Positions 6,483 through 36,297 are shown, numbered from the stretch's first letter. The stretch: 64,000 bases of DNA from an uncultured Oscillospiraceae bacterium (GCA_964370845.1 CAYJLB010000008.1:552-64551), one strand, 5' to 3'. A program made the numbers and translations. The notes: generated from the sequence alone by a model not told the origin.

Positions 6483-7555
6483 TAGCTTTTCCCCTTTTCC
6501 TTTGTAGGGTCAAAATCGGGTTGTTCCAAAGTAATTCTCCCTAGTTTCCCCGCACGGAATTCATCAATAAAAATAATAGCAGTTCTTTCGGTGTTAATTT
6601 CTCCACCAGCGATTAAAAATCCACGTTTGCTACCAATTTTTTCGAGGATAGAAACTCCCGATTCATTTTCCTGCGTTTCAACACCATATCTATCAAAAAT
6701 ATTCTTTTTATAATCAATATTCAAATACTCTAAAAGCCTTACAGCAAGGTATTCAAGGTCCATTATGTCATCTTTTACAGCCCCTGTAAAAGCTAAATGT
6801 TCCCCAACGGTTTTATCCTCAAACTTAGGCCACAAAACACCAGGCATATCAAGTAATTCAAGGTCTTTATCTAAAGTTACCCACTGTTTTCCACGAGTAA
6901 CACCAGGTCTATCCTCAACCTTTGCCCTTTTGGATTTTGCAAGCTTATTTATAAAGGAAGATTTCCCAACATTTGGAATTCCAACAATCATAATTCTAAT
7001 AGGTCGCCCCACCATACCTTTGCGTTCCCAAGATTCAATTTGCACAGAGAGAAGTTCCCTCAAAGCGGTCATAAACTTGTTCACACCCTTACCAGTACGG
7101 CAGTCGGTTGCAATAGCTAAAATTCCTTTATTTTTATAGTAATTAAGCCATTTCGCAGTAACACTTTCATCGGCACTATCAGCTTTATTTAAGATAATAA
7201 TCTTAGGTTTACTCCCCGTCATGCCGTCCATTTCAGGGTTTTTGCTACTAAAAGGAATTCTTGCGTCAATAATTTCAACAATAGCATCAACAAGCCTTAA
7301 ATTCGCATCAATCAAACGCCTAGTTTTCGCCATATGCCCCGGAAACCACTGTATATTATACTGTGAATTTATGTTATCCGCTGGCTTACTTTTATCACGC
7401 TTTTTCTTTTCAGGCTTAACTTTTTCGGTAACTTTATTAGCAGAAGCATTTCTTAAATACTTGTTACTATTTTTATTTCTGTGGCTATTTTTTTTTGCAC
7501 TTTTCGCTTTTTGTGCATCAGTTTTTTTACCAAAATTTTGTCGCTTTTCAGCCAT
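6482..7555 (-). CDS. rbgA: ribosome biogenesis GTPase A (YlqF/RbgA) with a Lys-rich N-terminal extension
   Basis: QWFPGHMAKTRR, then circularly permuted G motifs (NKADSA before GIPNVGKSSFIN). I place the start at ATG 7555 (RBS GAGAGGAA 9 nt upstream) rather than the TTG at 7588. Confidence 0.88.
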   Translation of the reverse strand: MAEKRQNFGKKTDAQKAKSAKKNSHRNKNSNKYLRNASANKVTEKVKPEKKKRDKSKPADNINSQYNIQWFPGHMAKTRRLIDANLRLVDAIVEIIDARIPFSSKNPEMDGMTGSKPKIIILNKADSADESVTAKWLNYYKNKGILAIATDCRTGKGVNKFMTALRELLSVQIESWERKGMVGRPIRIMIVGIPNVGKSSFINKLAKSKRAKVEDRPGVTRGKQWVTLDKDLELLDMPGVLWPKFEDKTVGEHLAFTGAVKDDIMDLEYLAVRLLEYLNIDYKKNIFDRYGVETQENESGVSILEKIGSKRGFLIAGGEINTERTAIIFIDEFRAGKLGRITLEQPDFDPTKEKGKS

Positions 7556-7580
7556 AAAATAACATTCCTCTCTGTAGGGC

Positions 7581-8132
7581 TTATTCAACTACTCCAAAAC
7601 TATCAAATGGATAAATTCTAAATATAGTTTTCCCCACAATATCTTCCCTTGGAACAAATCCAACTCGACTATCTCTACTATCAGTAGAGTGGTTTCGATT
7701 ATCCCCTAAAACAAAATAGCTGTCCTCTGGTACAATTACAGGATAATCATGTCCGTATTCGTCAAGATAAGTAGGTTCAGCAATGTAAGGTTCATCAATT
7801 GCAACATCGTCAACATAAACTATCCCTTGATTAAAATCAATATCAACTTTTTGCCCAGGAGTTGCAACAATACGCTTTACAATATCTTTTTGCAAACCTT
7901 CACTTCTTACAACTACAATATCCCCAACTTCTGGAGAATAAAACCAGTTCGAAACTAGCAATCTATCATCATTTACAAGAGTGTTCATCATAGAAATTCC
8001 GTCAACTCTTACTTGCTTGCAAACAAAAGTAAAAATTATCAAAATTACAAACAATGCGAACAAAATCGTATGAATCCAGTCGCAAATTTCATCTATTAAA
8101 CTAACATTTTTTTCAGTATTTTGTTGTTCCAT
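7581..8132 (-). CDS. lepB: signal peptidase I
   Basis: Single N-terminal TM, catalytic Ser box DGISMMNTL, and GDNRNHSTDSR box. The start may be ATG 8132 or the upstream in-frame codon at 8153. Confidence 0.88.
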   Translation of the reverse strand: MEQQNTEKNVSLIDEICDWIHTILFALFVILIIFTFVCKQVRVDGISMMNTLVNDDRLLVSNWFYSPEVGDIVVVRSEGLQKDIVKRIVATPGQKVDIDFNQGIVYVDDVAIDEPYIAEPTYLDEYGHDYPVIVPEDSYFVLGDNRNHSTDSRDSRVGFVPREDIVGKTIFRIYPFDSFGVVE

Positions 8133-8773: not shown

Positions 8774-8869
8774 GAGTATTTGTTAATTTTTATCAATTGC
8801 AATGAAAAATAAATACTAAAGTCGGTTATAATTTTTGTACATTTCTTACAAAAGGCAACACTATTCGAC

Positions 8870-9541
8870 TTATCTAAAAATTTCTTCGTTTTGAGCAAAA
8901 ATGTTAATTCTTTTAACGTCAATTCTTTCAAATCCAAGTCCTAAAAACTTAGCAAATTCATCAGTTAATAAAGTTGTGTTTAAATTTAAAACTGTCCCCG
9001 CTGGAAACTTCAAACCGAAAGTTAAAACATCATCTGAAATTCCCACATCAAACACGTCAATATGCGGTTTTATGTCAAGGGTAGAAATTCCTTTTCGCTT
9101 AGTTTTTTTCTCAACTTCAATCTTTTCCTTTGCGATAAATTCCTCGAATTTTTTCAATAATTCCACACCAGAAAGAGCAGTTTTTATTTCAATTTTATAC
9201 TCAGCCTTAACAATATCAGTATGCTTTTTCACTGGATAAAAACCTGTCACAATAGCTAAAGATTCAGGCAATTGCTTGTTCATAATTGCTACAACTTCAT
9301 CAATATCCATTTCTTTTGTCAAGCGAATATCCATTATTTCAGTTTCGCTCTCAACACCTAAAGAAAGAGCCAGTGGGAACATTATATAAGGGTGCGGATT
9401 GAACCCTTGTGTGTACCAAATTGGGATTTTTCCGCGGTTAAACGCCCTCGTCATTGTTCGCATTAAATCAAGGTGGGAAATAAATCTTGCCCTATCTTTT
9501 TTACTAAAAACGAGCCTTACATCAATACTATCTTTTACCAC
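8870..9541 (-). CDS. TIGR03936-family radical-SAM-associated protein (DUF2344)
   Basis: 223 aa, FSKKDRARFISHLDLMRTMTRAF N-terminus typical of this family. It overlaps the upstream radical SAM gene by 14 nt. Confidence 0.8.
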   Translation of the reverse strand: MVKDSIDVRLVFSKKDRARFISHLDLMRTMTRAFNRGKIPIWYTQGFNPHPYIMFPLALSLGVESETEIMDIRLTKEMDIDEVVAIMNKQLPESLAIVTGFYPVKKHTDIVKAEYKIEIKTALSGVELLKKFEEFIAKEKIEVEKKTKRKGISTLDIKPHIDVFDVGISDDVLTFGLKFPAGTVLNLNTTLLTDEFAKFLGLGFERIDVKRINIFAQNEEIFR

Positions 9542-11375
9542 AATAAAGCCCTCCTGTTTCGCTTTTTATTCCACAACCGCTACATTGTTCCATACAATTT
9601 TTCGTTGTAACAGCTTGGTGAGCCTTTTTATTTTCCTTAATTAAATAATTTTTTGACACCAAATAATCCAAGTGGTCCCAAGGCAAAATTTCCTCATAAT
9701 CACGTTTTCTATTAGCGTAAAATTCTGGAGAAACTTCACATTCTGCAAATGCTTCTTCCCACAAATCAAAACGGAATAAATAGTCTTGAGCATCTAAATT
9801 TGCACCTTTTTTCCACGCAGAATAAACCACGTCGCAAAGCTTTCTATCCCCTTTCGCAAGGACAGCTTCAAGAAGTGAAACCTTGCTATCATGCCAACTT
9901 ACACGGACTTTTTTGGAAGAAATTGACTTTAACAAATGACTTTGTTTTTCTTTAATTTTTTCCATTGTGTCCTGTGGTTCAAATTGGAATGGAGTGAAAG
10001 GTTTTGGCACAAAAGTTGCACAAGAAATTGATACTGTAAGCATTTTTCCACGCAATTCTTTTGGCACCTCAAAGTATAAATCAACAACTTTTTCTGCAAT
10101 TTTAGCAATTGCCTTCATATCCTCCAAAGTTTCGGTAGGAAGCGACATCATAAAGTATAATTTTACATTAGAATAACCGCCCTCGAACGCCATTTTGCAG
10201 GTTGAAAAAATTTCTTCTTCAGTGATATTTTTATTGATAACATCACGCAAACGCTGGCTTCCGGCTTCGGGTGCAAAAGTTAAACTTGTCTTTCTAATTT
10301 GTTTTAGCTTGTCCATTAAACCTTGAGAAAAATTGTCAATTCTCGTTGAAGGTAAGGACAAATTCACGTTATTTCCAAGGGTATAATCAGTTATACTATT
10401 CAACATTCCCTCTATATCGGAATAATCACTTGTACTAAGTGAGGAAAGTGAAACCTCCTCATAACCTGTATTTTCGCATAAACATTGAAGTTGGTTTGTA
10501 ATTGTGTCAACATTTTTCTCTCTTAAAGGACGATAAATGAACCCAGCTTGACAAAAACGACAACCTCTCGCACAACCACGCAAAACCTCAACAACTGCCC
10601 TATCATGTACAATTTCTGTAAAAGGAACAACAAAATTATCTGGATAATAAACCTTATCAAAGTCGGAAATCAGTCTTTTTTCCACAGTTTTTGGAGCTTG
10701 TTCAATATTAGGTTGCACCGATTTTATGGTCTTGTCATCATTGTATTCAACGTCATAAAATTCAGGCACATAAACGCCCTTAATCTGACAGGCTTCACGC
10801 AAAAATTCAGTTTTTGTAGGATTATTCGGCTTCATTTTTGCGTACAAATCCATTAGTTCAAGGTTAACTTCCTCCCCCTCACCAAGGATAAAAATGTCGA
10901 TGAAATCCGCCAATGGCTCAGGGTTACAAGCACATGGTCCACCCGCCACAACTATTGGAAACAAGTCCGTTCTATCCTTAGATTTTACTGGCAAACCAGC
11001 TAAATCAAGCATATTTAAAACTGTAGTATAGCAAAGCTCATATTGCAAAGTAAAGCCAATAAAATCGAAATCTTTAATAGCTTCAAGGCTTTCTAAACCA
11101 TAAAGAGGAATGTCATTTTCACGCATTTCCTTCTCAAAATCAGGCAATGGAGCAAAAACACGCTCACACCAATAATTCTCCCTTTGATTTTTCAAAGCAA
11201 CAAGGATTTTCATTCCAAGGTGGGACATTCCCACATCATAAGTGTCGGGGAAACAAAAGGCAAACCGCACATCTACCTTACTTTTATCTTTATGAACGCT
11301 ACCAAATTCCCCGCCGATATAGCGAGCTGGCTTTTGCACGTTCAATAAAACTTTCTCAATTTTTTCTCTTAACAT
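9528..11375 (-). CDS. TIGR03960-family B12-binding-domain radical SAM protein
   Basis: 615 aa, CxxxCxxC cluster motif in RGCARGCRFCQAG. The N-terminal part resembles a B12-binding domain, and it pairs with DUF2344. Confidence 0.85.
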   Translation of the reverse strand: MLREKIEKVLLNVQKPARYIGGEFGSVHKDKSKVDVRFAFCFPDTYDVGMSHLGMKILVALKNQRENYWCERVFAPLPDFEKEMRENDIPLYGLESLEAIKDFDFIGFTLQYELCYTTVLNMLDLAGLPVKSKDRTDLFPIVVAGGPCACNPEPLADFIDIFILGEGEEVNLELMDLYAKMKPNNPTKTEFLREACQIKGVYVPEFYDVEYNDDKTIKSVQPNIEQAPKTVEKRLISDFDKVYYPDNFVVPFTEIVHDRAVVEVLRGCARGCRFCQAGFIYRPLREKNVDTITNQLQCLCENTGYEEVSLSSLSTSDYSDIEGMLNSITDYTLGNNVNLSLPSTRIDNFSQGLMDKLKQIRKTSLTFAPEAGSQRLRDVINKNITEEEIFSTCKMAFEGGYSNVKLYFMMSLPTETLEDMKAIAKIAEKVVDLYFEVPKELRGKMLTVSISCATFVPKPFTPFQFEPQDTMEKIKEKQSHLLKSISSKKVRVSWHDSKVSLLEAVLAKGDRKLCDVVYSAWKKGANLDAQDYLFRFDLWEEAFAECEVSPEFYANRKRDYEEILPWDHLDYLVSKNYLIKENKKAHQAVTTKNCMEQCSGCGIKSETGGLYCGKR

Positions 11376-11452
11376 TAATATGACCTATCCTTTCTCATAG
11401 AGGTTTAACTGCATATTTATTTTATTATATACTATTTTAAAAGAAATTTCAA

Positions 11453-12025
11453 CTATGAAAAAAATTCACTTACAAAAATAAACAAAAGTGAAGCTAAAAG
11501 CAGGTAATTTACTTGATTTATAACCGCCAAATAAATGGAAAATGTTAAGATAATTCCTATAAAAACTAAGCTTATTGCCTTGGAAATAAATTCAGATTTT
11601 GCTGGATAATACCGCTGTAATGCAAGGTTTAACATCTTTCCACCATCGAAATGTCTTAGGGGAAGTAGGTTAAAACTTCCGATGATTAAATTCATTACAG
11701 CAAACACTTGAAATAATGCACTTTCTACAAAAAAATAAATTAAAAACAGTGAGAAATTACAAATTATCCCAGCGGACAAAACTAACATATTTTCTTTGTA
11801 ATTAAGAAAATTTTCCCTTGTAGAAATTTTTATTCCTCCACCATAAAAGGTAATTTTTTCAACTTTTCCGCTGAAAAATTTTATCATAGCAATATGCCCG
11901 AACTCGTGGATAATGCTTGCTATAATGGATAAAAGGAACAATCCTGTCCTATCGAAAAAGGAAAGGATTGCAAGGCAGGCAAAAAAGCTGAACTTAATAG
12001 AAATTTTATTTTTAATTTTAATAAT
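11453..12025 (-). CDS. small M50 (site-2 protease) family metalloprotease, start codon uncertain
   Basis: HEFGH zinc motif plus NLLPLRHFDGG (the NxxPxxxxDG motif of S2P). The reading frame stays open upstream of the first ATG (11941) through a hydrophobic segment (FSFFACLAILSFF) up to a TGA at 12031-12029. Confidence 0.7.
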   Translation of the reverse strand: MIKIKNKISIKFSFFACLAILSFFDRTGLFLLSIIASIIHEFGHIAMIKFFSGKVEKITFYGGGIKISTRENFLNYKENMLVLSAGIICNFSLFLIYFFVESALFQVFAVMNLIIGSFNLLPLRHFDGGKMLNLALQRYYPAKSEFISKAISLVFIGIILTFSIYLAVINQVNYLLLASLLFIFVSEFFS

Positions 12026-12057
12026 TTGTCATTCCTTTCTTATTTTTTTAAATAGAT

Positions 12058-12324
12058 TTACACGTCAAAAAACTTTCTCACTTTCTCCATTTTATCGCTG
12101 ACAATTTTGTCCGCTGTGAAAGAAGTGTTAAGTTTTAATTTCAAATATTCGGAAAAAATTCCGTAAATATGAGGCTTTACACACCTTAAAACTGCTAAAG
12201 TTCCGTACAATCCCACTGAAAAGACAATTTCTATCACAAGCAAATCTTTGTATGTAATTCGCCTTTCTTCCTCAAATTGATAGTCACTTTCATCACTGTA
12301 AATTAACAAGGAAATGTTCTCCAT
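12058..12324 (-). CDS. hypothetical small membrane protein (88 aa)
   Basis: ORF with one hydrophobic segment, directly upstream of and co-oriented with the M50 gene. No recognisable motif. Confidence 0.4.
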   Translation of the reverse strand: MENISLLIYSDESDYQFEEERRITYKDLLVIEIVFSVGLYGTLAVLRCVKPHIYGIFSEYLKLKLNTSFTADKIVSDKMEKVRKFFDV

Positions 12325-12437
12325 AAAACACCATTCCTTTCTGAAACTACTTCTATTAATAAATATTCACTGTAAAAAAATAATATTCTGCCGAAAAATT
12401 GTCCTTTTTGAAAAATACTTTTAATTTATAATTTAGT

Positions 12438-12466
12438 TTGACTTTTTTTGTGAAATTGTTTATAAT
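12438..12466 (+). promoter_or_regulatory. sigma-A type promoter of the lipoprotein/ABC operon
   Basis: TTGACT (12438-12443), 17 nt, TATAAT (12461-12466). Confidence 0.6.
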
Positions 12467-12682
12467 TAAATTTATAATTTATAAATAGTTGTTTTCATTC
12501 GATTTACTTTTCCTGTCATTTTTTGTGGAAAAATAAACGTTGGGTAAAGCGGGAAACTGTTTTGCCTCCCTTTTTTGGAAAGAATGAACTTTTTTTACTG
12601 CTTATGCGGTTTATTTAGGTTGCTTTCTTTTCTTTAAGGAGCAACTTTTTATTTTATTTAAGGAGAAAGGATTGGGCAAAAA
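12467..12682 (+). promoter_or_regulatory. ~210-nt structured 5' leader with terminator-like hairpin (candidate riboswitch/attenuator, class unknown)
   Basis: 8-bp hairpin 12543-12550/12559-12566 with loop GGGAAACT. Stem GTTGCT/AGCAAC (12619-12624/12640-12645) is followed by TTTTTATTTTATTT. The block 12526-12582 is homologous to 18877-18933. Confidence 0.4.
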
Positions 12683-15600
12683 ATGAAAAAATTATTGGCA
12701 TTATTTTTAGCATCGTTTATGTTACTTGCTACCGCTTGTGAAAGTGACGAAAATTCCAAAGAAACGGGAGAAGTTTCACCCGAAATTGAAAAAAGTGTGG
12801 AAATATTCGAAGGAATTGACTTTGAAACTTCCGAATATAAGCACATTACAAATGGCGGAATTACTACAGATGACGTTCTTCCATATGCAATTGACGCAAT
12901 TACTGGAGCAACTGTTACTGTTGAGGGGCCTGCTGTTGACACAAGTATCCCCCTTTCAGTTCGTGAACTTGAAAATAAAAATGAGGGAATTGTCCGCGGA
13001 ATTTACAGCGATTCAACTGGTGAATTTATCTACGAGGGTGTGGATTTATACTATATTATAAACGAAATGACTGACGGAGATAATGGAATTTTCCTCACAG
13101 ATAATGCTTATGCTGTTGAGCTTCGCAACGATGAAAGGGCGACTATTGCAACAATTAAAATAGAAGATATTACTAAAGCCCACGAAAATAATGAGCCTAT
13201 TATCATAGCTTACGGAATTGGAACTGTTGACGGAGAAATTTCTTCTCCTTTTGTTTATGACGGTGAAACGGAGGAAGCTGTTCCTCTTGGATATATTGAG
13301 GAATTGAACAACGATGACGGTTGTTTAAAACTTGTTTTTGACGGAAATAAATATTCAACCGAAAACAATTACACAACTTTCGACAATGTAGCTTATATTT
13401 ACATTCAAGAGGAAGTAACTCCTGGATTTAAGCATACTTTAGCCGACAACGAAAGCTATGATTCTTCCGATTATTTAGACTATATTTTGACAATCCGTGG
13501 TGGAGCGTTAGGACGTGAGTTCACTATGACTTTGGAGGAACTTGAAAACTTAGTTAAATATGATGAAAATAATGACGTAATCGAGGGTGGAATTGGCTTT
13601 AGAGAACGTTATTCCCTAGCTAACAATGCTTATTGGTATGTAAATGAGTATGAGGGACTTGATTTGTACAAAATGCTCACTTATTTAGGTATGAGAACTG
13701 CCGAAGATATGGGGCGAGCAGACTCAAGAAACACTTTAATTAGCTTTATTGCTGCGGACGGACACCCTTCTAACGAAACTTTTTCTGTGGAAACTTTATC
13801 CTATCCCGATGTGTTTGGATTTTATCAAAAAAATGCTTTAGACACTGGGGACGGGTCATATGCACCGTCAAATAGCGACCTTGTTAATTCGGGTTATCCT
13901 GTGTTGCTTGCTTATGGTGTAAACAGCTATCCTTACACAATTTCTACCTTTGATAATGGCTATTTATCAGGTCTTGGAAACAGCGGTGGACCTTTTAGAA
14001 TTGTATTTGGAAAAACTCAATATTACCACGCAAACGGCTCTTATCAAGTTCAATTTGTAAACGAAATTATTGCCGGTGAAAACATTCAATATAACACTCA
14101 CAAATACAGTGATAATGCTGATTATAACGCACTTTCAAACAATACAATTTCCTTAAACATTACAAACTGGAAAGAGGAAACTATTGCAAATGAAAATATT
14201 TCAGTTGGTGAAATTGAAGACATTATTTACGGTGAAAATGTGGACTTTAAAGTTGCTCAAACTGCAAAAGTTAAGGATATTTATGAAGTTGAAGAACTTG
14301 ACATTTATGAGGGAGTTGACCTTGAATATTTCTTAATGGAATATGCAAAAGTTCCTGGAACTGTTGGAACTGTAACTTTCACTTCGGAAAATGGTGAAGT
14401 TTTAACTACCGACATTGACAGAATTTTCGGGCTTGGAAAAAACACTTCCGACGGTGAGGAAGTTAAGGCTGAATTATCTCCTATTTTAGCTTTTGCAAAA
14501 AATGGCTCTCCTTTAGTAATTGACGAAAATTCAGCAGGATATGAGGGAGAAGTTTCCTTAAATCCTTTGTCAGATAGCGACCCTACAACCTATTCTGTAA
14601 ACAATAGCGGAGGACCTTTAGCTGTTATTTTACCAAAAACTACAACTGAAAATGCTGAGTTTTTAGCCAATGTAGTTTCAATAAATGTAACTATCGAAAT
14701 GGACACCTATTCCCACTTAGAAGCTCCTTATGACAGCCTTTCAAAAAGCGAAGTTTCTTTCTACGGTGAGGGTTTAGAAAAAGAAATGACTTACACAGTG
14801 GCGGAAATTGAAGCTATGCAAATTGACGCTAAAACTTATGATTATAGCGTAGTAAACAGCGAAAACGCAAACAGCTACGAAGAACGTTACAGAGGTGTTC
14901 CACTTTACAATATTTTAACGGACATTGGCTTAATGAGTAACGCTGGCGATGTGATTGTTCACTACGGAAATGGGGAAACTAAAACAATTTCTCTTTCATT
15001 ATTAAAAGGGCAAAATTATCAAAACTACATTTCCCCAGATAAAGGGAATATTTCAGCAATGCTGGCTTTTGGAATCGGACAGACTGATGAAACTGCAAAA
15101 TATGGATATCCTCTTGTGCAAGATGAAAATTCTGACGGATTTTTTGGAGAAATCGGCAATTTAGGTGGTCCTTTGAAATTAGTTGTTCCGCAAGAAGATG
15201 AATCCGCTATAAATGGTGAACTTTTCTGTGAAAATGTGACAGCAATTGAAGTTACTGCAAATGATATTCAAACTTGGGGACATGAAATGAGTGACATTTA
15301 TGCTGAATTTTTGGACTACGAATTTGAATTTGTTGTCAAAAATGAAGTACACGAATGGCGAGAAACCTTCACTGTTGCTCAATTAGAAGCGTTAACTGGC
15401 TACATTGTTCGTGATACTTACTCCGTTCTTGAAATTGGAGAGTGCGAGGGTGTTGACATTTGGAACTTTGTAAACTTAATTGCTGGGGAAGTTGAAGGGA
15501 TTGAAAACCCTGTTTCAGTAACAGTTTACGCTGAGGACGGATACAAAAATGACCTACTTTCAACTTATAATTTAGAAGCTCTTGAAGAAGGAGTTCTTGA

Positions 15601-15838
15601 CGCAAATAACGAGAGAAAAGCCTTGATAATTGCATACGCACTGAACGGTTACCCACTTGTTGACAGCGAAAATCACGAGGGTTACACAGGGCTTGCGGGC
15701 AATAGTTCAGGACCTCTTAGAGTTATCGCTGAAAATGTGCAAGGTGCTTCTGTAAAATTATTTAACAAACTTATTGTTACAATTGAGGGCGATGAGGAAA
15801 TCAACATTACAGTTGACGAAAGCATTTTTGAAAAATAA
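12683..15838 (+). CDS. 1051-aa secreted lipoprotein with five tandem sulfite-oxidase/MsrP-like (Oxidored_molyb-like) modules
   Basis: Signal peptide plus a Cys in MKKLLALFLASFMLLATAC. Five ~160-200 aa modules each show Y.GVDL.., a ..(A)Y(A/G).NG.PL.. segment, and GGP(F/L)(R/K/A)(I/L/V)V (nt ~13985, ~14606, ~15165, ~15707; degenerate CLKLVF at ~13320). Fold assignment is by eye. Confidence 0.8.
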   Translation: MKKLLALFLASFMLLATACESDENSKETGEVSPEIEKSVEIFEGIDFETSEYKHITNGGITTDDVLPYAIDAITGATVTVEGPAVDTSIPLSVRELENKNEGIVRGIYSDSTGEFIYEGVDLYYIINEMTDGDNGIFLTDNAYAVELRNDERATIATIKIEDITKAHENNEPIIIAYGIGTVDGEISSPFVYDGETEEAVPLGYIEELNNDDGCLKLVFDGNKYSTENNYTTFDNVAYIYIQEEVTPGFKHTLADNESYDSSDYLDYILTIRGGALGREFTMTLEELENLVKYDENNDVIEGGIGFRERYSLANNAYWYVNEYEGLDLYKMLTYLGMRTAEDMGRADSRNTLISFIAADGHPSNETFSVETLSYPDVFGFYQKNALDTGDGSYAPSNSDLVNSGYPVLLAYGVNSYPYTISTFDNGYLSGLGNSGGPFRIVFGKTQYYHANGSYQVQFVNEIIAGENIQYNTHKYSDNADYNALSNNTISLNITNWKEETIANENISVGEIEDIIYGENVDFKVAQTAKVKDIYEVEELDIYEGVDLEYFLMEYAKVPGTVGTVTFTSENGEVLTTDIDRIFGLGKNTSDGEEVKAELSPILAFAKNGSPLVIDENSAGYEGEVSLNPLSDSDPTTYSVNNSGGPLAVILPKTTTENAEFLANVVSINVTIEMDTYSHLEAPYDSLSKSEVSFYGEGLEKEMTYTVAEIEAMQIDAKTYDYSVVNSENANSYEERYRGVPLYNILTDIGLMSNAGDVIVHYGNGETKTISLSLLKGQNYQNYISPDKGNISAMLAFGIGQTDETAKYGYPLVQDENSDGFFGEIGNLGGPLKLVVPQEDESAINGELFCENVTAIEVTANDIQTWGHEMSDIYAEFLDYEFEFVVKNEVHEWRETFTVAQLEALTGYIVRDTYSVLEIGECEGVDIWNFVNLIAGEVEGIENPVSVTVYAEDGYKNDLLSTYNLEALEEGVLDANNERKALIIAYALNGYPLVDSENHEGYTGLAGNSSGPLRVIAENVQGASVKLFNKLIVTIEGDEEINITVDESIFEK

Positions 15839-15859
15839 ATAGCGAAAAAGGAAGATTAA

Positions 15860-16918
15860 ATGAAAAAAATAATTGCAATTTTACTGGCTTTAACCTTGAC
15901 AATTTCCCTTTCTGCATGCAATAATAAAAAGAATAGTCAAGTGGAAACTTCAGCTACAACTGCCCAAACTACTGCACAAACTTATCCATTTGAAACTGTA
16001 ATCGACGCTTCCGACGACGTTTTGGAAGTGCCAGAGGACAGCGATAATATTACTGTAGCTTCAACTTATGCTGTAGTTGTGCCATTTTTGAAGGCTTTGC
16101 AAATTACTGAAAATGTAGTTGCGATTAATGCTAAAACTAAGTTTTGGACGGACACTGACGGATTTTTGGATAATGCTGGCACTGTAGGACGTGGAGTTGT
16201 TGACCTTGAAGCACTTGCTACTTTTGAACCAACTTTGTTTATAAATCGAGCATTTGACGATAAAACTAAAACTGCTGTGGAAAATCTTGGAATAGAGTAT
16301 ATGGCTGTCCACGCTGAAACAATTGAGGACACTTACAAAACCCTCACTATGCTAGGCGATTATTTCGGAGCGTCCGAGAGAGCAAACGAAGTGATAACTT
16401 ATATGGAAGAAAAATTTGCTGAAATTGCTGAAATTGTCAGTAAAATCCCCGAAGATGAAAAAGTTTCTGCTTTTGTAATGGGAGGGCAACTTGGAAGTGT
16501 TGCTGGGCAAAACTTTTTGCAGTCAGAAATGATTGAGCTTGCTGGAGGAATTTCCCTTGGAAAAGAATATTCCACAAGCGATAGTTGGGCAATGATTGGA
16601 GTGGAGGAAATTTTTGCAAATGACCCTGATTTCCTATTCACAACAGCTTCCACTGTTTTAGATTATTCAATTGAAAAAATTTATGGTGATGACACTTGGG
16701 GAGCATTAAAAGCTGTCCTTAATGAAAATATTTATCAAATTCCAGCGAAAATTCACGCTTGGGATTTACCTGGAGTTGAGCCTGTAATCGGGACTTTTTG
16801 GCTACTTCATAAAATGTACCCTGAATATTTTTCTGCAAATGAATTACAAGCCGAAATTGATGAATATTACACATTTATTTTTGGTGAAACTTTTGACAGC
16901 GAATATTTAGGCTACTAA
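15860..16918 (+). CDS. ABC importer substrate-binding lipoprotein, class III (FecB/BtuF/FhuD-like periplasmic binding protein)
   Basis: Lipobox LSLSAC, 352 aa, placed directly before a FecCD permease and its ATPase. Substrate cannot be deduced. Confidence 0.8.
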   Translation: MKKIIAILLALTLTISLSACNNKKNSQVETSATTAQTTAQTYPFETVIDASDDVLEVPEDSDNITVASTYAVVVPFLKALQITENVVAINAKTKFWTDTDGFLDNAGTVGRGVVDLEALATFEPTLFINRAFDDKTKTAVENLGIEYMAVHAETIEDTYKTLTMLGDYFGASERANEVITYMEEKFAEIAEIVSKIPEDEKVSAFVMGGQLGSVAGQNFLQSEMIELAGGISLGKEYSTSDSWAMIGVEEIFANDPDFLFTTASTVLDYSIEKIYGDDTWGALKAVLNENIYQIPAKIHAWDLPGVEPVIGTFWLLHKMYPEYFSANELQAEIDEYYTFIFGETFDSEYLGY

Positions 16919-16951: not shown

Positions 16952-17980
16952 TTGAAAAGTACAAAAACTAAAATTTCTTTTTGGAAAATAATTGTAATCC
17001 TATCTTTACTTTTGTTGGTTTGCATAGTCCTTGCGGTTTGTGTTGGGAAATTCCCTGTCACTCCCCTTGAAAGCCTTGAAGTTTTGTTTACACAGATTTT
17101 TGGGCAGGAAAACAACCTTTCCGAAATGACAAATAACGTTGTAATGGGGCTTAGAATTCCACGAATTTTAGTAAGCGTTACCGTAGGAGCTGCACTTTCC
17201 GTCGCTGGGGCTTCTTATCAAGGCGTTTTCAAAAACCCGTTAGTTTCCCCCGATTTTCTCGGTGTTTCTGGGGGAGCGTGCATTGGTGCAGCTTTAGCAA
17301 TTGTAATGGCTCTTCCCTATGAATTTACTCAAATTTTCGCATTTTTGGGTGGAATTTTTGCAGTTGCAATCACAATTTCTATTCCTATGGCTTTGAAAAA
17401 TAAAACTAACATTGTTTTGGTTTTATCGGGTGTAATTGTAGGTTCAGCCGCTTCTTCCGTCCTTGGATTTATCAAATATATTGCTGACCCAGAAACTGAA
17501 CTTGCCGCCATAACTTACTGGACAATGGGGAATTTTTCCTATGTTACTTTGGAGGAATTGTTTGTAGTTTTCCCAGCTGTTTTGATTTGTTTAGTGGTGT
17601 TATTCCTTATTTCTTGGCGAATTGACATACTTTCTTTAGGGGAAGATGAGGCGAAAACTCTTGGGATAAACATTACATTTACAAGAAATATCACAATTAT
17701 TTGCTCAACAATTTTAACTGCAACATCTGTTTCACTTTGTGGAACTATCGGTTGGATAGGGCTTGTAATTCCCCACTTTGCACGAATGACAACGGGAGCA
17801 AACCATACTAAATTGCTTCCTGTTTCAGCGTTAATCGGCGGTTTATTTATGCTTTTTATTGACACTTTAACAAGGACAATTGGACCCGAAGAAATGCCAG
17901 TAAGCATTTTAACTGGAATAATTGGCGCACCTTTTTACTTGATTTTACTAATGAAAAATCAAAAAGAAAGGTTGGTGTGA
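16952..17980 (+). CDS. FecCD/BtuC-family ABC importer permease
   Basis: 342 aa, about 9-10 TM segments, conserved GTIGWIGLVIPHFARM segment typical of FecCD. TTG start. Confidence 0.9.
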   Translation: MKSTKTKISFWKIIVILSLLLLVCIVLAVCVGKFPVTPLESLEVLFTQIFGQENNLSEMTNNVVMGLRIPRILVSVTVGAALSVAGASYQGVFKNPLVSPDFLGVSGGACIGAALAIVMALPYEFTQIFAFLGGIFAVAITISIPMALKNKTNIVLVLSGVIVGSAASSVLGFIKYIADPETELAAITYWTMGNFSYVTLEELFVVFPAVLICLVVLFLISWRIDILSLGEDEAKTLGINITFTRNITIICSTILTATSVSLCGTIGWIGLVIPHFARMTTGANHTKLLPVSALIGGLFMLFIDTLTRTIGPEEMPVSILTGIIGAPFYLILLMKNQKERLV

Positions 17981-17985
17981 TTTAA

Positions 17986-18762
17986 ATGATTTTTGAGATA
18001 AAAGACCTTTATTTTGAATATAAAAAAGGAAAACCTATACTTTCCGACTTAAATTTATCATTAAAAGAGGGGGAAATTCTCACTATTTTAGGCCCTAATG
18101 GAGCGGGAAAGTCCACTTTGCTTTCTTTAATGATAAAGCTTTTAAAACCATGTGAGGGGGAAATTTTTCTCGACAGTGAAAATTTAGCCGACTTAAAGGA
18201 AAAAGATATTGCAAAAAAAGTGAGTTTTGTTCCACAAAGTGTTTCCCCTACTTTCAGTTATTCCGTTTTGGATTACGTTTTAATGGGGAGAGCGCCAATG
18301 ATTTCCTATCTTTCAAGACCCTCAAAAGCAGATATTGAATGTGCAAAAACTGCAATTTCTGACATGGAAATTTCCCATCTTTCCGACAAATCTATCCTTG
18401 AAATAAGCGGTGGAGAGAGGCAACTCGCAACCATTGCACGGGCGATTGTACGCAGTCCAAAAGTGATTTTATTTGACGAGCCAACTTCTCACCTTGATTT
18501 CGCTAATCAATTGAAAGTTTTGCGAATTGTGAAAGGTTTATCCGAAAGAGGATTTTCTGTTGTAATCACAACCCACAACCCTGACCACGCTGTGTTACTT
18601 TCCGATAAAACAGCTTTAATTGACCGAAATGGAAACATTATTAGCGGAAAAACTGAGGAAATTCTCACTGAAAATATGCTAAAAAAAGTCTATGACACCG
18701 ACTTAATTTTGCGTTATATTGACGAAATTGGACGTTTTTCCTGCCTTTATCCTAATTTATAA
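17986..18762 (+). CDS. ABC importer ATP-binding protein (FepC/BtuD-like)
   Basis: Walker A GPNGAGKST, signature ISGGERQ, Walker B ILFDEPTSHLD. Confidence 0.92.
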   Translation: MIFEIKDLYFEYKKGKPILSDLNLSLKEGEILTILGPNGAGKSTLLSLMIKLLKPCEGEIFLDSENLADLKEKDIAKKVSFVPQSVSPTFSYSVLDYVLMGRAPMISYLSRPSKADIECAKTAISDMEISHLSDKSILEISGGERQLATIARAIVRSPKVILFDEPTSHLDFANQLKVLRIVKGLSERGFSVVITTHNPDHAVLLSDKTALIDRNGNIISGKTEEILTENMLKKVYDTDLILRYIDEIGRFSCLYPNL

Positions 18763-18772: not shown

Positions 18773-18801
18773 TTGACAATTTGTTAAAAAAATGATAAAA
18801 T
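18773..18801 (+). promoter_or_regulatory. sigma-A type promoter for the 19066 lipoprotein gene
   Basis: TTGACA (18773-18778), 17 nt, TAAAAT (18796-18801). Confidence 0.55.
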
Positions 18802-19065
18802 CAAATGTAATTAATTTCAATCTATATTTAAATATCTAATTTATATTCCGAATTTATTTTTCTAAGGCTTAACCGCTATGAAAAGTAAATCTGGGTTAAT
18901 TTGGAAACGAATTAACCTTCCATGTTTGAAAAGGGATAAAAACAGCTTCACAAACTGTTGAAGCAATAGCCAATTTATTGGTTTGTTTATAATGCCTTTT
19001 CGCCTAAAAACGAAAAGGTTTTTATATTTTTGAAGAAATTTCTATTTTGAAAGGAACGTATTAAA
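18802..19065 (+). promoter_or_regulatory. ~260-nt structured 5' leader, paralogous to the 12467-12682 leader (candidate riboswitch/attenuator)
   Basis: Hairpin GGTTAATT-TGGAAACG-AATTAACC (18894-18917). A competing TTAACC lies at 18869-18874. Second hairpin at 18945-18964, then an internal intrinsic terminator. Confidence 0.45.
18995..19030 (+). terminator. leader-internal intrinsic terminator
   Basis: CCTTTTCG-CCTAAAAA-CGAAAAGG followed by TTTTTATATTTTT, 36 nt before the start codon. Confidence 0.65.
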
Positions 19066-20121
19066 ATGAAAAAATTATTAGCCCTATTGTTGTCACTTTC
19101 TTTGGTGGTAACTCTTGCCGCTTGTAGCGAGAATGCTCCTGCTGAAACTACTGAAAACACAACAGTTGCTACTGAAGCACAAACTGAAGCTGAAACCACT
19201 GAAGAAACTGAGGGAGAAACCGAAAGCGACAGTACTGAACTTCCTGCTCCTGAAATTAAGGAAGCTGTTGGAGTTACAATCCCTGAATTTTCTGTGAATG
19301 TAAATGGTGTTGACGTGACAAACGTTACTCTTGCTGACCTTGCTTTATATGAAGTTACTGCACACTCAATCAACAGTGCTGGAACTACATCTGTTACAAC
19401 TTACATAGGATTTACTGTTAAAGATATTCTTGCAGCTTCGGGAATTGAAGCTACTGGTGCAATGGTTGTAACTGCTGATGACGGATATGAAATTGAGTAT
19501 TCTGCGGAAGTTGCAAATGCTGATACTACTTTACTTGCTGTTAGCAAAAACGGCGAACAATTCGGAACTGCTCCTTGGCTTGCTCCTTGTTCTGAACAAG
19601 TTACTGGTCAATACTTAAAAAATGCTATAACTATTTCATTTGACGGTGCTGAAAGTGGCACTAGTGATGAAGAACCAGCAGAAGATGCTGATGCTGAAGT
19701 AAGCGAAGTTCCAGCTCCTGAAAAATCAGACAAAACTGCTCAAGTTACATTCTCTGATTACTCATTCTTAATCGATGGAACTCCAATCACAAATGCTACT
19801 TTAGAAGGTTTATCAATTTACAAAGTTGACGCTTCTACTTTAAAAGATGATGCTGTTACAACTTCAACTTACACAGGTTATGTTCTTTCCGACGTTTTAG
19901 CAGCTGCTGGAATTACTGATTTCACTTCAATTGTTGCTGTTGCAAATGACGGTTACGAAGTTGAATATGACAAAGAAACTGCTATGAACGAGTTCACAAT
20001 TGTTGCAATTGAAAAAGACAAAGAACTTGGCGAAGACGGAACAATTTGGATTGCTCCAGCTACTGAAACTGCTGGCAAAATGTACGCAAAATTAGTTGTT
20101 GAACTAAAGATTAATAAATAA
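19066..20121 (+). CDS. 351-aa secreted lipoprotein with two Oxidored_molyb-like modules separated by acidic T/E-rich linkers
   Basis: Lipobox VTLAAC. Two internally similar modules: ..YEVTAHS..YIGFTVKDILAASGI..VTADDGYEIEY..LLAVSKNGEQ.. and ..YKVDAST..YTGYVLSDVLAAAGI..VANDGYEVEY..IVAIEKDKE.. Confidence 0.8.
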   Translation: MKKLLALLLSLSLVVTLAACSENAPAETTENTTVATEAQTEAETTEETEGETESDSTELPAPEIKEAVGVTIPEFSVNVNGVDVTNVTLADLALYEVTAHSINSAGTTSVTTYIGFTVKDILAASGIEATGAMVVTADDGYEIEYSAEVANADTTLLAVSKNGEQFGTAPWLAPCSEQVTGQYLKNAITISFDGAESGTSDEEPAEDADAEVSEVPAPEKSDKTAQVTFSDYSFLIDGTPITNATLEGLSIYKVDASTLKDDAVTTSTYTGYVLSDVLAAAGITDFTSIVAVANDGYEVEYDKETAMNEFTIVAIEKDKELGEDGTIWIAPATETAGKMYAKLVVELKINK

Positions 20122-20885: not shown

Positions 20886-20912
20886 AACATACAGAAAGGA
20901 ATGGGCATTTTT

Positions 20913-21482
20913 ATGAAAAATAAAGGAATTTTGCTTGTTTTAACCCTTGCTTTAGTGCTTTTTACAAGTTGCTCAACTGAGGTTGAAGAAAGTTCTTCAT
21001 TTCCAATTATAAAATTTGACCACTTTTCTTCGGGGGGAGTTTCGGAGGAATACGAGGCTGTTATTTTGTTCGAGCAAAGTAATTCCACCTTTACTTCATA
21101 TCAAGTTGCATTTTTGTCCTGTAACTGCCGTGATGCTTTGGTGAGTTATTTTTCAGTTATGTACGTTGAACTTTTGAACTCAAAGGAAAATGTTGAGGAC
21201 TCGGCAATACGTTCAATAACCTTTGGAAACAATCAAGGTTTATGGGGGGACAGCAATCCAAACTACTATGTTCCCGAGTACACTGAGGAATATTATGATG
21301 AGCATTTTGTGCAAAAGCTTGTAAAAGCTACAAAATCTGACATTGACAGTTGGGCGGGTTACGGCGAGTCTATTGAGCCTATTGGTGTCGATTTAATCGC
21401 TGGTGCAACTGTTTCAACCAGCAATATAACCTCAATGTTACAAAGTTTATTTGAATACCACGAAGAAAACTATTACTCCTAG
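20913..21482 (+). CDS. secreted lipoprotein with FMN_bind-like C-terminal motif
   Basis: Lipobox-like LFTSC. GVDLIAGATVSTSNI (nt 21390-21410 for DLIAGAT) lies ~25 aa from the C-terminus, as in NqrC/RnfG/PplA FMN_bind domains. The start is probably ATG 20913; the ORF opens at 20901. Confidence 0.55.
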   Translation: MKNKGILLVLTLALVLFTSCSTEVEESSSFPIIKFDHFSSGGVSEEYEAVILFEQSNSTFTSYQVAFLSCNCRDALVSYFSVMYVELLNSKENVEDSAIRSITFGNNQGLWGDSNPNYYVPEYTEEYYDEHFVQKLVKATKSDIDSWAGYGESIEPIGVDLIAGATVSTSNITSMLQSLFEYHEENYYS

Positions 21483-29071: not shown

Positions 29072-29096
29072 GGGAATGGATGCAACGTCACGTTGC
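29072..29096 (+). repeat. short copy of the repeat-family terminus (gggaatggatGCAACGTCACGTTGC)
   Basis: The 24 nt tggatgcaacgtcacgttgc and flanks match 39803-39822 and the reverse complement of 21638-21660. It overlaps the pullulanase stop codon. Confidence 0.75.
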
Positions 29097-31013
29097 AAAA
29101 ATTATCCCTGTGCTGCCAGCCATTTTAAATTCGCTATTTATAAAAACTTCTTCGCTAACAAATTTTTCTCCGTCAAGTAGAATTTTCCATTCCCCTTTTG
29201 GAAGTTTAATAGTTTTCTTTACAAAGTTTGGATTATAAGCAACAAATATCTTTCTTTCGCCATCGTTTATAATAAAGCTTACAATATTACTGTCTTTTTG
29301 CTTAATAAACTCGAAGTGGGAAGATATTTCAATATTTTTGTCGCTTAATATTGTAACAGATTTTCTAAATTTAATCAAGTTTTTATAAAATTCAACTAAA
29401 TCGCTGTTTTCCTCCGCCCTAGTCCAGTCAAGCATATTTAATTTTGGTGAAGATTTATAGCTGTCCCCTTCCCCTTTTTTGGTTCTTGCAAATTCTTCAC
29501 CCGCTTGGAAGAAAATTCCTCCCCCACAAGTAAAGTAAATAGTTGCACAAAACTTATTAAGCTGAAGTATTTCTTTGCTTATTTCCTCAAAATCCACATT
29601 GTCGCTCATTGACATTGCAAGTTTGTCATATAAAGTGAAATTATCGTGGGCAGGAACATAGCTTATAATTTGTTTAGCTTTTCGCACGTCAACTTTATCG
29701 CTATCACACCAAGCGGTTACAGCGGATTTTATTTCAGTAGAAAGGTCTTGTTTACCATTTACATAACCGCAAACTTCCTCATAAAAAACGCTTCCCTTAA
29801 TCGCATCTCGTGTATCATCAGAGAAAATTGCAATATTTGTGTCAAGCATATCAATGTTATCTTTTGTGGCTGGAACTGCACCCTTTGCCATAGCTGGAGT
29901 GTCCGCAAACCAAGGCTCTCCATACATTAAAATTGACTTTCCATTAGGAAGTTTGTCCAATTCCTCACGAATTAAATTCATTGTTACAGTGTCGTGAAGC
30001 CCCATTAAATCAAATCTAAAGCCATCTAAATGATATTCTTTTGCCCAATACAAAACTGAATCCACCATAAATTTTCTAAACATAAATCTCTCACTTGCAG
30101 TTTCATTTCCACAAGCTGAACCATTTGAAAATTCTCCGTCTTTAGTTCTGTGATAATAATAAGGAACTGTATGGTGGAAGTTTGAAGCAACGTCATAAGT
30201 GTGGTTATAAACCACGTCCATAATTACTCCAATATTCGCATCATGCAAAGCTTTTACCATTTGTTTAAGCTCATTAATTCGCACATTTCCGTCCTTTGGA
30301 TTACTTGAATAAGACCCTTCAGGAACGTTATAGTTTACAGGGTCATAACCCCAGTTAAATTGTTTACCATCGCCATTTTCGTCAACACTTCCAAAATCAT
30401 ACATAGGTAAAATATGAACATGGGTTACACCTAAATCTTTTAGGTAATTCATACAAGTATTTTTCCCTGTATTTTCTGTGAAAGCAAGATATTTTCCACG
30501 ATTTTCTTTACTTATCCCACTATTTTTGTCATAGGAAAAATCTTTAATATGAAGTTCGTAAATAATTGGTTGTAAATTGCTGTCATAAGAAAAATTGTCT
30601 TTGTCCCAGTCTTTTGGATTAGTTTTTTCAAGGTCAACAACCATACCTTTTCTTCCGTTTACACCACAAGCTTTTGCATAAATATCCACAACTTCAAAAG
30701 TTTTACCCATTGAAGTTACCGAATAGGTATAATAAAAATCAGTTAAATCCTTATCGCTTTCGAAAAAGTAAACGCCATTCTCCCCTTTTTCCATTTTATA
30801 AGAAGTTATAGCTTTTTCATTAGGATGTCCATTTTTAAAAAGGTTTAATTTTATTTCCTTTGCTACAGGTGACCAAACTTTAAAAGTTGTGCCATTTTTG
30901 TGCAAAGTTACACCTAAATCCTTGCCTTCATATTTAAATTGTTCCTCAAAAGAATGAGAATCGTAAAATTTTATTAGTTCATTTTTCTCCATACTAACAA
31001 ATAGTCCTTTCAT
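29088..31013 (-). CDS. pulA: type I pullulanase (GH13)
   Basis: GH13 regions DGFRFDLMGLHD, LMYGEPW and ISYVPAHDNFTL, with an N-terminal CBM48-like segment. The start is possibly the second ATG (MEKNELIKFYD). Confidence 0.88.
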   Translation of the reverse strand: MKGLFVSMEKNELIKFYDSHSFEEQFKYEGKDLGVTLHKNGTTFKVWSPVAKEIKLNLFKNGHPNEKAITSYKMEKGENGVYFFESDKDLTDFYYTYSVTSMGKTFEVVDIYAKACGVNGRKGMVVDLEKTNPKDWDKDNFSYDSNLQPIIYELHIKDFSYDKNSGISKENRGKYLAFTENTGKNTCMNYLKDLGVTHVHILPMYDFGSVDENGDGKQFNWGYDPVNYNVPEGSYSSNPKDGNVRINELKQMVKALHDANIGVIMDVVYNHTYDVASNFHHTVPYYYHRTKDGEFSNGSACGNETASERFMFRKFMVDSVLYWAKEYHLDGFRFDLMGLHDTVTMNLIREELDKLPNGKSILMYGEPWFADTPAMAKGAVPATKDNIDMLDTNIAIFSDDTRDAIKGSVFYEEVCGYVNGKQDLSTEIKSAVTAWCDSDKVDVRKAKQIISYVPAHDNFTLYDKLAMSMSDNVDFEEISKEILQLNKFCATIYFTCGGGIFFQAGEEFARTKKGEGDSYKSSPKLNMLDWTRAEENSDLVEFYKNLIKFRKSVTILSDKNIEISSHFEFIKQKDSNIVSFIINDGERKIFVAYNPNFVKKTIKLPKGEWKILLDGEKFVSEEVFINSEFKMAGSTGIIFAT

Positions 31014-31105
31014 ACTAGGTTTTTTCTAAAATAAAGGAGTGCGACGAAACTGTTATAAATTTCGCACACTCCTTAAAGTCATATTAATTTTGTGCAAAGT
31101 TTCCT

Positions 31106-33336: not shown

Positions 33337-33373
33337 AATGTTCCTCTCCCTAAAATTTAATTTCTTTTATAAA

Positions 33374-35040: not shown

Positions 35041-35087
35041 AAAAAACCCCTTTTAACATAAACTTGTTTTAGTATATGTTAAAAGGG
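35041..35087 (-). terminator. intrinsic terminator after mtlD
   Basis: Minus strand: CCCTTTTAACAT-loop-ATGTTAAAAGGGG followed by TTTTTT. Confidence 0.75.
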
Positions 35088-35095
35088 ACTAATTA

Positions 35096-36265: not shown

Positions 36266-36297
36266 AATGATATTCCATCCTTTCACTTTTTAATTCT

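Follow-up and report, generated by a model that had tools for sequence, protein, structure and literature searches.

The gene at positions 12683 to 15838 of a 64,000-nucleotide stretch of DNA from an uncultured Oscillospiraceae bacterium (GCA_964370845.1 CAYJLB010000008.1:552-64551; hereafter the window, counted from its first letter) encodes LP1051, a 1,051-residue surface lipoprotein built from five tandem modules of the sulfite oxidase (SUOX) fold. LP1051 is probably part of a system that scavenges tungsten or its pterin cofactor and not an enzyme. Our preferred reading, which we hold tentatively as possible and short of probable, is that the locus is a surface acquisition system repressed by the tungsten cofactor (Tuco), in which a flavinylated receptor captures a pyranopterin-type ligand for import. 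An earlier note on this DNA had described LP1051 as a set of binding modules and was silent on its context. With two riboswitches of the molybdenum cofactor (Moco)/Tuco class, an importer of the ATP-binding cassette (ABC) type, and several accessory lipoproteins beside it, that binding protein becomes part of a system for acquiring a cofactor or a metal.

RESULTS

LP1051 consists of five SUOX-fold modules that lack the Mo-ligand cysteine

LP1051 begins with MKKLLALFLASFMLLATAC, which includes a lipobox. The open reading frame (ORF) on the + strand, the lipobox, and Cys19 agree with the lipoprotein that the earlier note had described, and the cysteines it listed for the mature protein (214, 849, and 921) were recovered, with no others besides Cys19. 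The same architecture occurs in more than 120 protein clusters of 1,012 to 1,085 residues (53 to 63% identity) and at 79 genome loci. The carriers include Oscillospiraceae, Christensenella, Flavonifractor, Anaerovoracaceae, Mogibacterium, Lutispora, Syntrophomonas, and others, and they come mostly from guts, rumen, and digesters. The note had raised the possibility that the ORF is a fusion of separate genes; retention of the full-length architecture across these clusters and loci rules out a fusion or an assembly artifact.

The five-fold repeat is evident from BLASTP, in which each module retrieves the other four (22 to 31% identity, E values of 1e-4 to 1e-10), and hhalign gives probabilities of 80 to 99% for every pair of modules with profiles built from 42 full-length homologues. 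The module limits, as redefined here, lie within about 20 residues of those first proposed. The shared motif layout was likewise reproduced in an alignment of 50 modules from 10 genomes, where it reads TV.ELE, a hairpin with a conserved 'YS', YEG(V/I)xL..LL, DG, LAYG.NG.PLV, GY, N.GGPL, and V..I.V. Pfam PF00174 scored 26.2 bits against a gathering score of 24, through module 4 alone, and scans of single modules returned no Pfam match for modules 1, 2, 3, and 5. The domain resemblance that had been read into each module is thus visible to Pfam in module 4 and in none of the other four.

The fold itself is borne out by the PF00174 score, by the profile links between modules, and by structural matches to a whole-protein AlphaFold2 (AF2) model with a predicted local distance difference test score (pLDDT) of 79, with modules 3 to 5 mostly at 85 to 95. 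Foldseek retrieved SorA, SorT, SoxC, nitrate reductase, and YedY at E values of 2e-7 to 1e-4 (2.4e-7 for SorA and 1e-5 for YedY), and PruR at 1e-4 to 8e-4 with a TM-score on the target of up to 0.74. When a pooled module profile was compared with PDB sequences, the top match was PruR of Vibrio vulnificus (7kom; E = 1.7e-4), with SorA at 0.5. Single-module profiles were insufficient to reach PruR: that of module 4 reached SorA only at an E value of 0.03, and that of module 2 had no match in the PDB. As judged from these profiles and models, the closest characterized relative of the modules is PruR. Membership in NCBIfam diheme_GEGP was rejected, as the scores of 36 to 39 bits against a cut-off of 300 reflect the common SUOX-like segment.

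PruR is a periplasmic SUOX-fold protein that carries Trp instead of the Mo-ligand Cys and binds small pterins (PMC11194511). In each LP1051 module, the position aligned to this Trp directly follows the conserved 'YS', and in no module is it Cys; there is also no conserved hairpin Cys in 65 homologues, so that the absence of the Mo-ligand Cys, first noticed by eye, holds across these homologues. PruR and YedY have in common the pterin-stacking aromatic residue of 'AY' (PMC11194511), and the 'LAY' of all five modules keeps it as Tyr or Phe. The Pro-Trp (PW) motif of PruR is not present at the aligned position in the modules. Hairpins of about 18 to 19 residues in modules 1 and 5 are PruR-like in length, and those of modules 2 to 4 have 25 to 33 residues. 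The module profile found only 223 clusters among 1.84 billion representatives, and the 150 of these that were listed are all multi-module relatives or fragments, with 1 to 10 matched stretches and up to 2,981 residues. Had the profile reached the large enzyme family, far more clusters would be expected; the modules are therefore a small, distinct branch and not the ordinary enzyme family. A Sec signal without a twin arginine implies that LP1051 would leave the cell unfolded and without a pre-loaded cofactor. The proposal that these are non-catalytic binding modules fits both this export route, Sec and not Tat, and the precedent of PruR, and it gains support from them.

Conservation is unevenly spread along the protein. 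Among the 65 homologues, columns that are at least 95% conserved make up 44% of residues 48 to 83, 31% of module 2, 25% of module 1, and 11 to 15% of modules 3 to 5. The conserved loops of module 2 have low pLDDT in the AF2 model, and we suspect that they become ordered only upon ligand binding. Cys214 is the only near-universal Cys (61 of the 65 homologues); it takes the place of the proline in the GGP segment of module 1, outside the hairpin, and may have a redox or ligand role. The Cys214 codon is at nucleotides 13322 to 13324, and the module that holds it adjoins the candidate flavinylation site.

A conserved flavinylation motif precedes module 1

The DAITGAT motif to which the earlier note had drawn attention lies at nucleotides 12893 to 12913 (residues 71 to 77), with Thr77 as the candidate acceptor. 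In the form [DNS]xI[TA][GS][AS]T it is present in 65 of 65 aligned homologues, and its final Thr is invariant. The stretch is probably not a full FMN_bind domain, again as the note had it: only about 45 residues precede the motif, and the match to PF04205 covers no more than the last 25 or so positions of the profile (15 bits against a cut-off of 22). At two loci, L044 (Syntrophomonas) and L047, an ApbE gene lies directly upstream of the homologue, between it and the riboswitches, and L044 also encodes an RnfG/NqrC-like protein nearby. No ApbE gene was found within the 64-kb window or at loci other than these two. The FMN_bind lipoprotein encoded in the cluster, u193, carries the motif DLIAGAT in the window copy and DAV[TS]GA[TS] in most homologues. 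It is the most conserved partner of LP1051, with 52 to 71% identity; a sequence search of the PDB with u193 gave nothing meaningful. From the conservation of the motif, the ApbE adjacency in L044 and L047, and the FMN_bind partner in the cluster, we infer that LP1051 is flavinylated. The parts of the flavinylation literature reached by a keyword search made no mention of SUOX, Oxidored_molyb, or tungsten.

Both transcription units follow P3-less Moco/Tuco aptamers

The cluster comprises two transcription units, each preceded by an RF01055 aptamer. Unit 1 encodes LP1051, a Peripla_BP_2 lipoprotein, an FecCD permease, and an ABC ATPase, and unit 2 encodes the double SUOX-like, rhodanese-like, and FMN_bind lipoproteins. 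Riboswitch 1 ends 81 nucleotides before the LP1051 start codon. In its expression platform, an anti-sequestor duplex of -12.7 kcal/mol competes with a sequestor of the ribosome-binding site (RBS) of -15.1 kcal/mol, and the overall fold is not significant against shuffles (z = -1.25). In riboswitch 2, a terminator hairpin of -11 kcal/mol competes with an antiterminator duplex of -12.2 kcal/mol. Because the terminator and the RBS sequestor compete with alternative pairings, both riboswitches are likely OFF switches, judging from their sequences.

The P3 columns are deleted from both window aptamers in the cmscan alignment, and the same holds for every one of the 28 aptamers in an alignment that covers the window and 24 related loci. 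P3-less RNAs correlate with tungsten cofactor use (PMC2408646). Aptamers at further loci were sought with nhmmer seeded with a manual alignment and with R1, a covariance model from the 28 aptamers that captured the P4 helix only and so acts mostly as a sequence model. With R1, at least 40 of 79 loci were found to have a P3-less element immediately before the homologous gene, and in Syntrophomonas the element occurs in tandem. In L044, tandem P3-less aptamers at 1667 to 1806, 7005 to 7123, and 7490 to 7607 (two strong, one weak) stand before ApbE and a 2,678-residue homologue, an arrangement that recalls the multiple riboswitches reported in 2008 for S. wolfei. A second aptamer before the double SUOX-like gene was seen, besides the window, only in Christensenella sp. 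MSJ-20 (L001, 14211 to 14325); at most loci, that gene follows the ATPase after a short gap, with no aptamer detected.

The cluster encodes a type II importer and accessory lipoproteins

Type II ABC importers with Peripla_BP_2 proteins carry heme, B12, and siderophores. The PDB relatives of the binding protein encoded here are the uncharacterized 4ovk, 4hn9, and 4pag, followed by MolA (3psa; E = 7e-8) and BtuF (1e-4), and its match to NCBIfam IsdE (54 bits) is below the cut-off. The two halves of the 351-residue SUOX-like lipoprotein match each other with an hhalign probability of 99.9% and module 4 with 74 to 80%, and this protein is kept beside LP1051. Its neighbor u229 has no Pfam or NCBIfam match and 734 homologues, all named hypothetical, in which residues including Cys157 are invariant. 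An AF2 model of u229 (pLDDT of 74) gave Foldseek top matches that are nearly all rhodaneses, the best being 1e0c (E = 0.025, probability of 0.96); together with the motif, these weak fold matches weakly suggest a rhodanese-like fold. Sequence matches of u229 to dihydrofolate reductase in the PDB were non-significant (E of about 0.3) and were taken as chance. All five exported proteins carry Sec lipoprotein signals without a twin arginine.

The locus is conserved, and a second clade has an ECF transporter

The order LP1051, binding protein, permease, ATPase, double SUOX-like, rhodanese-like, and FMN_bind is kept in about 25 loci, and the seven-gene set recurs in other orders at further loci. 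Within 10 kb of the locus, 81 loci include 18 with an oxidoreductase of the AOR (tungsten aldehyde:ferredoxin oxidoreductase) family, 11 with a MoeB-like gene, 10 with MoaC, 9 with a TunR/ModE-like regulator, and 8 with a MoaD-like gene. Aldehyde:ferredoxin oxidoreductase is a tungsten-pterin enzyme. The AOR encoded in the window is likely a client of whatever the system acquires; there was no RF01055 match upstream of its gene.

In a second clade (L040 to L074), the five-module core lies inside secreted proteins of 1,500 to 2,700 residues. The one such protein that was scanned, the L044 homologue (8822 to 16858), has three SLH domains, extra SUOX-like modules, and a Reg_prop repeat, and the largest multi-module representatives elsewhere reach 10 modules and 2,981 residues. 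In at least 12 loci of this clade, an energy-coupling factor (ECF) transporter stands in place of the FecCD importer. The ECF operon encodes an S component (PF09819), a 175-residue SUOX-like protein, EcfA, EcfA', and EcfT, and then MobB. An NTPase_1 (PF03266) P-loop gene follows the FMN_bind gene in 18 loci (e.g., L003, L005, L006, L009, L013, L016, and L080); MobB after the ECF module holds a similar place, and the window has neither.

Features of the window are collected in Table 1. Three further regions of the window were noted. Upstream and on the other strand (8870 to 11375, -), a radical SAM protein (Radical_SAM_N2, 615 residues) and then a DUF2344 protein are seemingly unrelated. An extracytoplasmic function sigma factor and a DUF4179 anti-sigma-like protein (41587 to 43228, +) are convergent with the adjoining AOR gene. 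A sugar-use region (29088 to 38325, -) with a pullulanase-like amylase, a sugar-binding protein, mannitol dehydrogenase, and a PRD/Mga-type regulator looks ordinary.

Table 1. Features of the LP1051 cluster and the AOR gene in the window
Feature	Coordinates	Strand	Evidence or remarks
Promoter of first operon, sigma-70-like (TTGACT-17-TATAAT)	12438..12466	+	Consensus match only, 11/12; 19 nt upstream of riboswitch
Riboswitch 1, Moco/Tuco aptamer RF01055, P3-less	12485..12601	+	Rfam, 61.5 bits vs gathering score 36
Expression platform 1: pyrimidine tract, weak hairpin, U tract	12602..12682	+	Tract can pair with either the aptamer 3' part or the RBS (AAGGAGAAAGG)
LP1051 gene (1,051-aa five-module surface lipoprotein)	12683..15838	+	ORF; full-length architecture in >120 clusters and 65 aligned genome copies
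Sec-type lipoprotein signal peptide and lipobox (LLATAC, Cys19), without twin arginine	12683..12739	+	Sequence
Most conserved LP1051 segment (aa 48-83), holds ApbE-type motif DAITGAT	12824..12931	+	44% of columns >=95% conserved
Module 1 (aa 84-245)	12932..13417	+	SUOX fold; short PruR-like hairpin; near-universal Cys214 at GGP position
Module 2 (aa 266-466)	13478..14080	+	Most conserved module; longest hairpin (YSLANNAYWYVNEYEG); ~45-aa aromatic-rich insertion
Module 3 (aa 487-672)	14141..14698	+	BLASTP, hhalign, model, module alignment
Module 4 (aa 688-860)	14744..15262	+	Sole module reaching Pfam PF00174
Module 5 (aa 880-1035)	15320..15787	+	BLASTP, hhalign, module alignment
Substrate-binding lipoprotein, Peripla_BP_2 (class III; siderophore/heme/B12/MolA type)	15860..16918	+	Pfam, 78.5 bits
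FecCD/BtuC-type permease (type II ABC importer)	16952..17980	+	Pfam, 293 bits; NCBIfam BtuC/FhuB-like
ABC ATPase	17986..18762	+	Pfam
Second promoter (TTGACA-17-TAAAAT with TG)	18773..18801	+	Consensus match only
Riboswitch 2, Moco/Tuco aptamer RF01055, P3-less	18834..18951	+	Rfam, 77.1 bits
Intrinsic terminator of riboswitch 2: 9-bp stem and U tract	18994..19029	+	5' arm can alternatively pair with aptamer GAAAAGG
351-aa lipoprotein, two homologous ~135-aa SUOX-like (PruR-sized) domains	19066..20121	+	Pfam PF00174, 38 bits
229-aa lipoprotein (u229), putative divergent rhodanese-like fold, invariant Cys157 in CGGGGY loop	20196..20885	+	Weak evidence
193-aa FMN_bind-domain lipoprotein (u193)	20901..21482	+	PF04205 match in 25/27 homologues
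Aldehyde:ferredoxin oxidoreductase (AFOR_N and AFOR_C, 618 aa)	43269-45125	-	Window's own AOR gene

DISCUSSION

A proposed acquisition system under Tuco control

In the mechanism that we propose, both transcription units would be expressed when Tuco is scarce. An ApbE-type transferase would flavinylate LP1051 on Thr77 outside the cell. LP1051 would be a receptor without catalytic function that binds an environmental pyranopterin-type ligand in its pterin pockets, with the N-terminal segment and modules 1 and 2, the most conserved parts, doing most of the capture. Candidate ligands are the W or Mo cofactor, metal-free molybdopterin, or a breakdown product from other cells. The 351-residue SUOX-like lipoprotein and the binding protein would pass the ligand to the ABC importer or, in the other clade, to the ECF transporter. 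The covalent flavins and the rhodanese-like Cys might condition the ligand, through the pterin redox state or the dithiolene sulfurs, which is speculation. Once imported, the cargo would supply AOR-type tungstoenzymes with tungsten and perhaps also with pterin, and an increase in Tuco would switch the system off.

LP1051 is read as a receptor and not an enzyme because canonical Mo/W ligation is impossible and there is no cytoplasmic loading. A pyranopterin cargo is favored because all seven receptor domains descend from a cofactor or pterin pocket, because both transporter classes carry vitamins and metal chelates, and because MobB and a SUOX-like protein sit within the ECF operon. In E. limosum, the 'Fe ABC-type' operon fetABC1, which is under a Tuco riboswitch, goes up under tungsten limitation (PMC11725836), the behavior expected of an acquisition system under negative feedback. 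A more specific form of this proposal, that Clostridia of guts and digesters pirate intact pyranopterin cofactors (Tuco, Moco, or molybdopterin) from their neighbors via the ABC or ECF importer, is doubtful in our estimate.

Several points weigh against capture of a pyranopterin ligand. Moco and Tuco are very labile outside proteins. MolA and MolBC show that members of this transporter class can transport molybdate or tungstate, and MolA (E = 7e-8) is a nearer relative of the binding protein than BtuF (1e-4). At least 10 carriers have MoaC beside the locus and others have MoeB or MoaD; such carriers make molybdopterin, so that pterin salvage would be unneeded and the limiting nutrient is more likely the metal. 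The pockets of PruR are too short for Moco (PMC11194511), and the hairpins of modules 1 and 5 are similarly short. An ECF transporter beside ApbE may traffic FAD for flavinylation, as FmnA/EetB does in Listeria (PMC9973259). The rhodanese assignment of u229 is weak (E = 0.025), P3-less RNAs are linked to Tuco by correlation, and the ligand is a prediction for every component.

Alternative explanations

Some of these points feed the strongest rival, which we judge somewhat unlikely: a high-affinity system for inorganic tungsten or molybdenum, in which a MolABC-like importer would carry tungstate or molybdate and the surface proteins would mobilize forms that TupABC cannot use in sulfidic guts (thiotungstates and thiomolybdates), the rhodanese-like Cys accepting sulfur, the flavins supplying redox steps, and the SUOX-like modules binding metal species instead of a pterin. 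Transporters for molybdate and tungstate occur in known Moco/Tuco riboswitch regulons (PMC2408646, PMC3766115). The binding protein has detectable similarity to MolA (3psa), at the E value given above, but is nearer to uncharacterized proteins and to heme or Ni-chelate binders. The MoaC, MoeB, and MoaD of the carriers would leave the metal, not the pterin, limiting, and a rhodanese-like partner with an invariant Cys would be suited to thiometalates in sulfidic habitats; many carriers come from rumen, gut, and digesters. The modules, however, are homologous to pterin or cofactor pockets and to no oxyanion-binding fold. In the second clade an ECF module substitutes for the ABC importer, and we know of no ECF transporter for an oxyanion.

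Uptake of iron or another metal chelate that is merely co-regulated with tungsten metabolism, with LP1051 and the FMN_bind protein as an extracellular flavin-based reductase, seems to us improbable. Peripla_BP_2/FecCD systems are mostly iron-chelate importers, iron uptake is the published reading of the two E. limosum 'Fe ABC-type' transporters under Tuco riboswitches (PMC11725836), and flavinylated extracytoplasmic proteins have been tied to iron assimilation (PMC8238504). An OFF switch that is de-repressed by tungsten limitation nevertheless suits an iron supply for active tungstoenzymes poorly (PMC11725836), and the seven SUOX-like domains, as well as MobB and the SUOX-like protein in the ECF operon, would be left unexplained. 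A Pfam scan found no iron-related gene or regulator in the operon.

A true enzyme or a PruR-like sensor is unlikely. An extracellular, MsrP-like Mo/W reductase or oxidase would use a non-Cys ligand such as the conserved Ser or Tyr of 'YS', would receive electrons via covalent FMN, and would be made only when cofactor is available. The SUOX fold and the flavin modules, which could transfer electrons, are in keeping with this, and in the 2008 paper on the riboswitch, the relatives from S. wolfei were classed as 'sulphite oxidases' that might use the cofactor (PMC2408646). We nonetheless give an enzyme only a slim chance, since no module of the 65 homologues has a Cys at the ligand position, Sec export leaves no known route for cofactor loading, the platforms are probably of the OFF type, an importer is co-transcribed, and the cluster contains no MsrQ, heme, or quinol-linked partner. 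Least probable, at a very small chance, is a sensor whose modules would bind small pterins that are excreted and would pass a signal to the cell instead of feeding a transporter. PruR is the closest characterized relative, which speaks for such a sensor, but no DcpA-type, GGDEF/EAL, or histidine-kinase partner is encoded nearby, the modules lack the PW motif, and an importer and a Tuco riboswitch go with the locus.

Significance

Our literature searches found no published description of the LP1051 family or system, and those on Moco uptake and on Moco/ECF transport found no importer for such a cofactor. To our knowledge, no importer for the Mo/W cofactor or molybdopterin is known in any organism. 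There is a realistic chance that this system is the first cofactor importer for Moco or Tuco. If cofactor piracy is true, it would provide the first Moco/Tuco importer in any organism and make these cofactors shared goods like B12. Nematodes take up dietary Moco (PMC7849362). The locus offers a concrete candidate: a conserved surface system under Tuco riboswitch control, with receptor modules descended from a cofactor pocket. If the cargo is inorganic, the system would still be a second, undescribed route of tungsten acquisition. Roles proposed for the tungstoenzymes of such bacteria are aldehyde detoxification and a contribution to the production of short-chain fatty acids in the gut (PMC11725836). 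Our results suggest re-examining 'iron transporters' under Tuco riboswitches as well as the S. wolfei 'sulphite oxidase' genes. They also widen the range of Cys-less SUOX (PruR-like) domains, from signaling proteins of Proteobacteria to surface proteins of Firmicutes with repeated modules, and covalent flavinylation would gain a new partner class.

Comparison with known systems

The system is related to two known kinds, Cys-less SUOX pterin binders and riboswitch-controlled acquisition systems. LP1051 shares its fold with the SUOX enzymes (SorA, SorT, SoxC, and YedY/MsrP; PF00174) and differs from them in lacking the Mo-ligand Cys, a dimerization domain, and a heme or MsrQ partner and in using Sec, not Tat. 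With ApbE-flavinylated proteins (NqrC, RnfG, and PplA) it has in common the Dxx(s/t)gA(T/S) motif and an extracytoplasmic location, and its system likewise has an ApbE neighbor (at two loci) and an FMN_bind partner, whereas the LP1051 motif probably stands outside a full FMN_bind domain.

The Peripla_BP_2, FecCD, and ATPase set of type II ABC importers (BtuCD-F, Fhu, Isd, and MolBC-A) is present in one operon here. In the proposed logic, the system most resembles the Isd/NEAT heme relay (IsdX2 with five NEAT domains, and IsdE-IsdF) and BtuG/BtuFCD, which have tandem cofactor-binding surface modules, a Peripla_BP_2 lipoprotein with an FecCD permease, and end-product feedback, by riboswitch in the case of B12. 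Those systems differ in that their receptor fold is unrelated and they have no counterpart of the covalent flavin or the rhodanese-like partner, and the cargo here is a proposal. Close parallels in genomic arrangement have been reported: P3-less RF01055 elements precede an FecCD-type importer or SUOX-annotated genes in E. limosum (fetABC1 and fetABC2; PMC11725836) and in S. wolfei, where two P3-less RNAs before 'putative sulphite oxidase' genes were unexplained exceptions in 2008 (PMC2408646). In those reports, the transporters were read as iron uptake and the SUOX-like genes were left unexplained.

PruR of Agrobacterium, Vibrio, and Klebsiella (PDB 7kou, 7kom, 7kp2, and 7rkb) is likewise a SUOX cofactor domain without the dimerization domain, and it shares with the LP1051 modules secretion, the missing Mo-ligand Cys, and the stacking aromatic of 'AY'. 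PruR, however, is a single domain of about 150 residues from Proteobacteria that is paired with the c-di-GMP enzyme DcpA and uses small non-Moco pterins for signaling. LP1051 and its relatives lack the PW motif, and in their module 2 the hairpin is much longer and an insertion is present. They combine five to ten modules in one Clostridia surface protein, which has a flavinylation site and is accompanied by an importer and a Tuco riboswitch.

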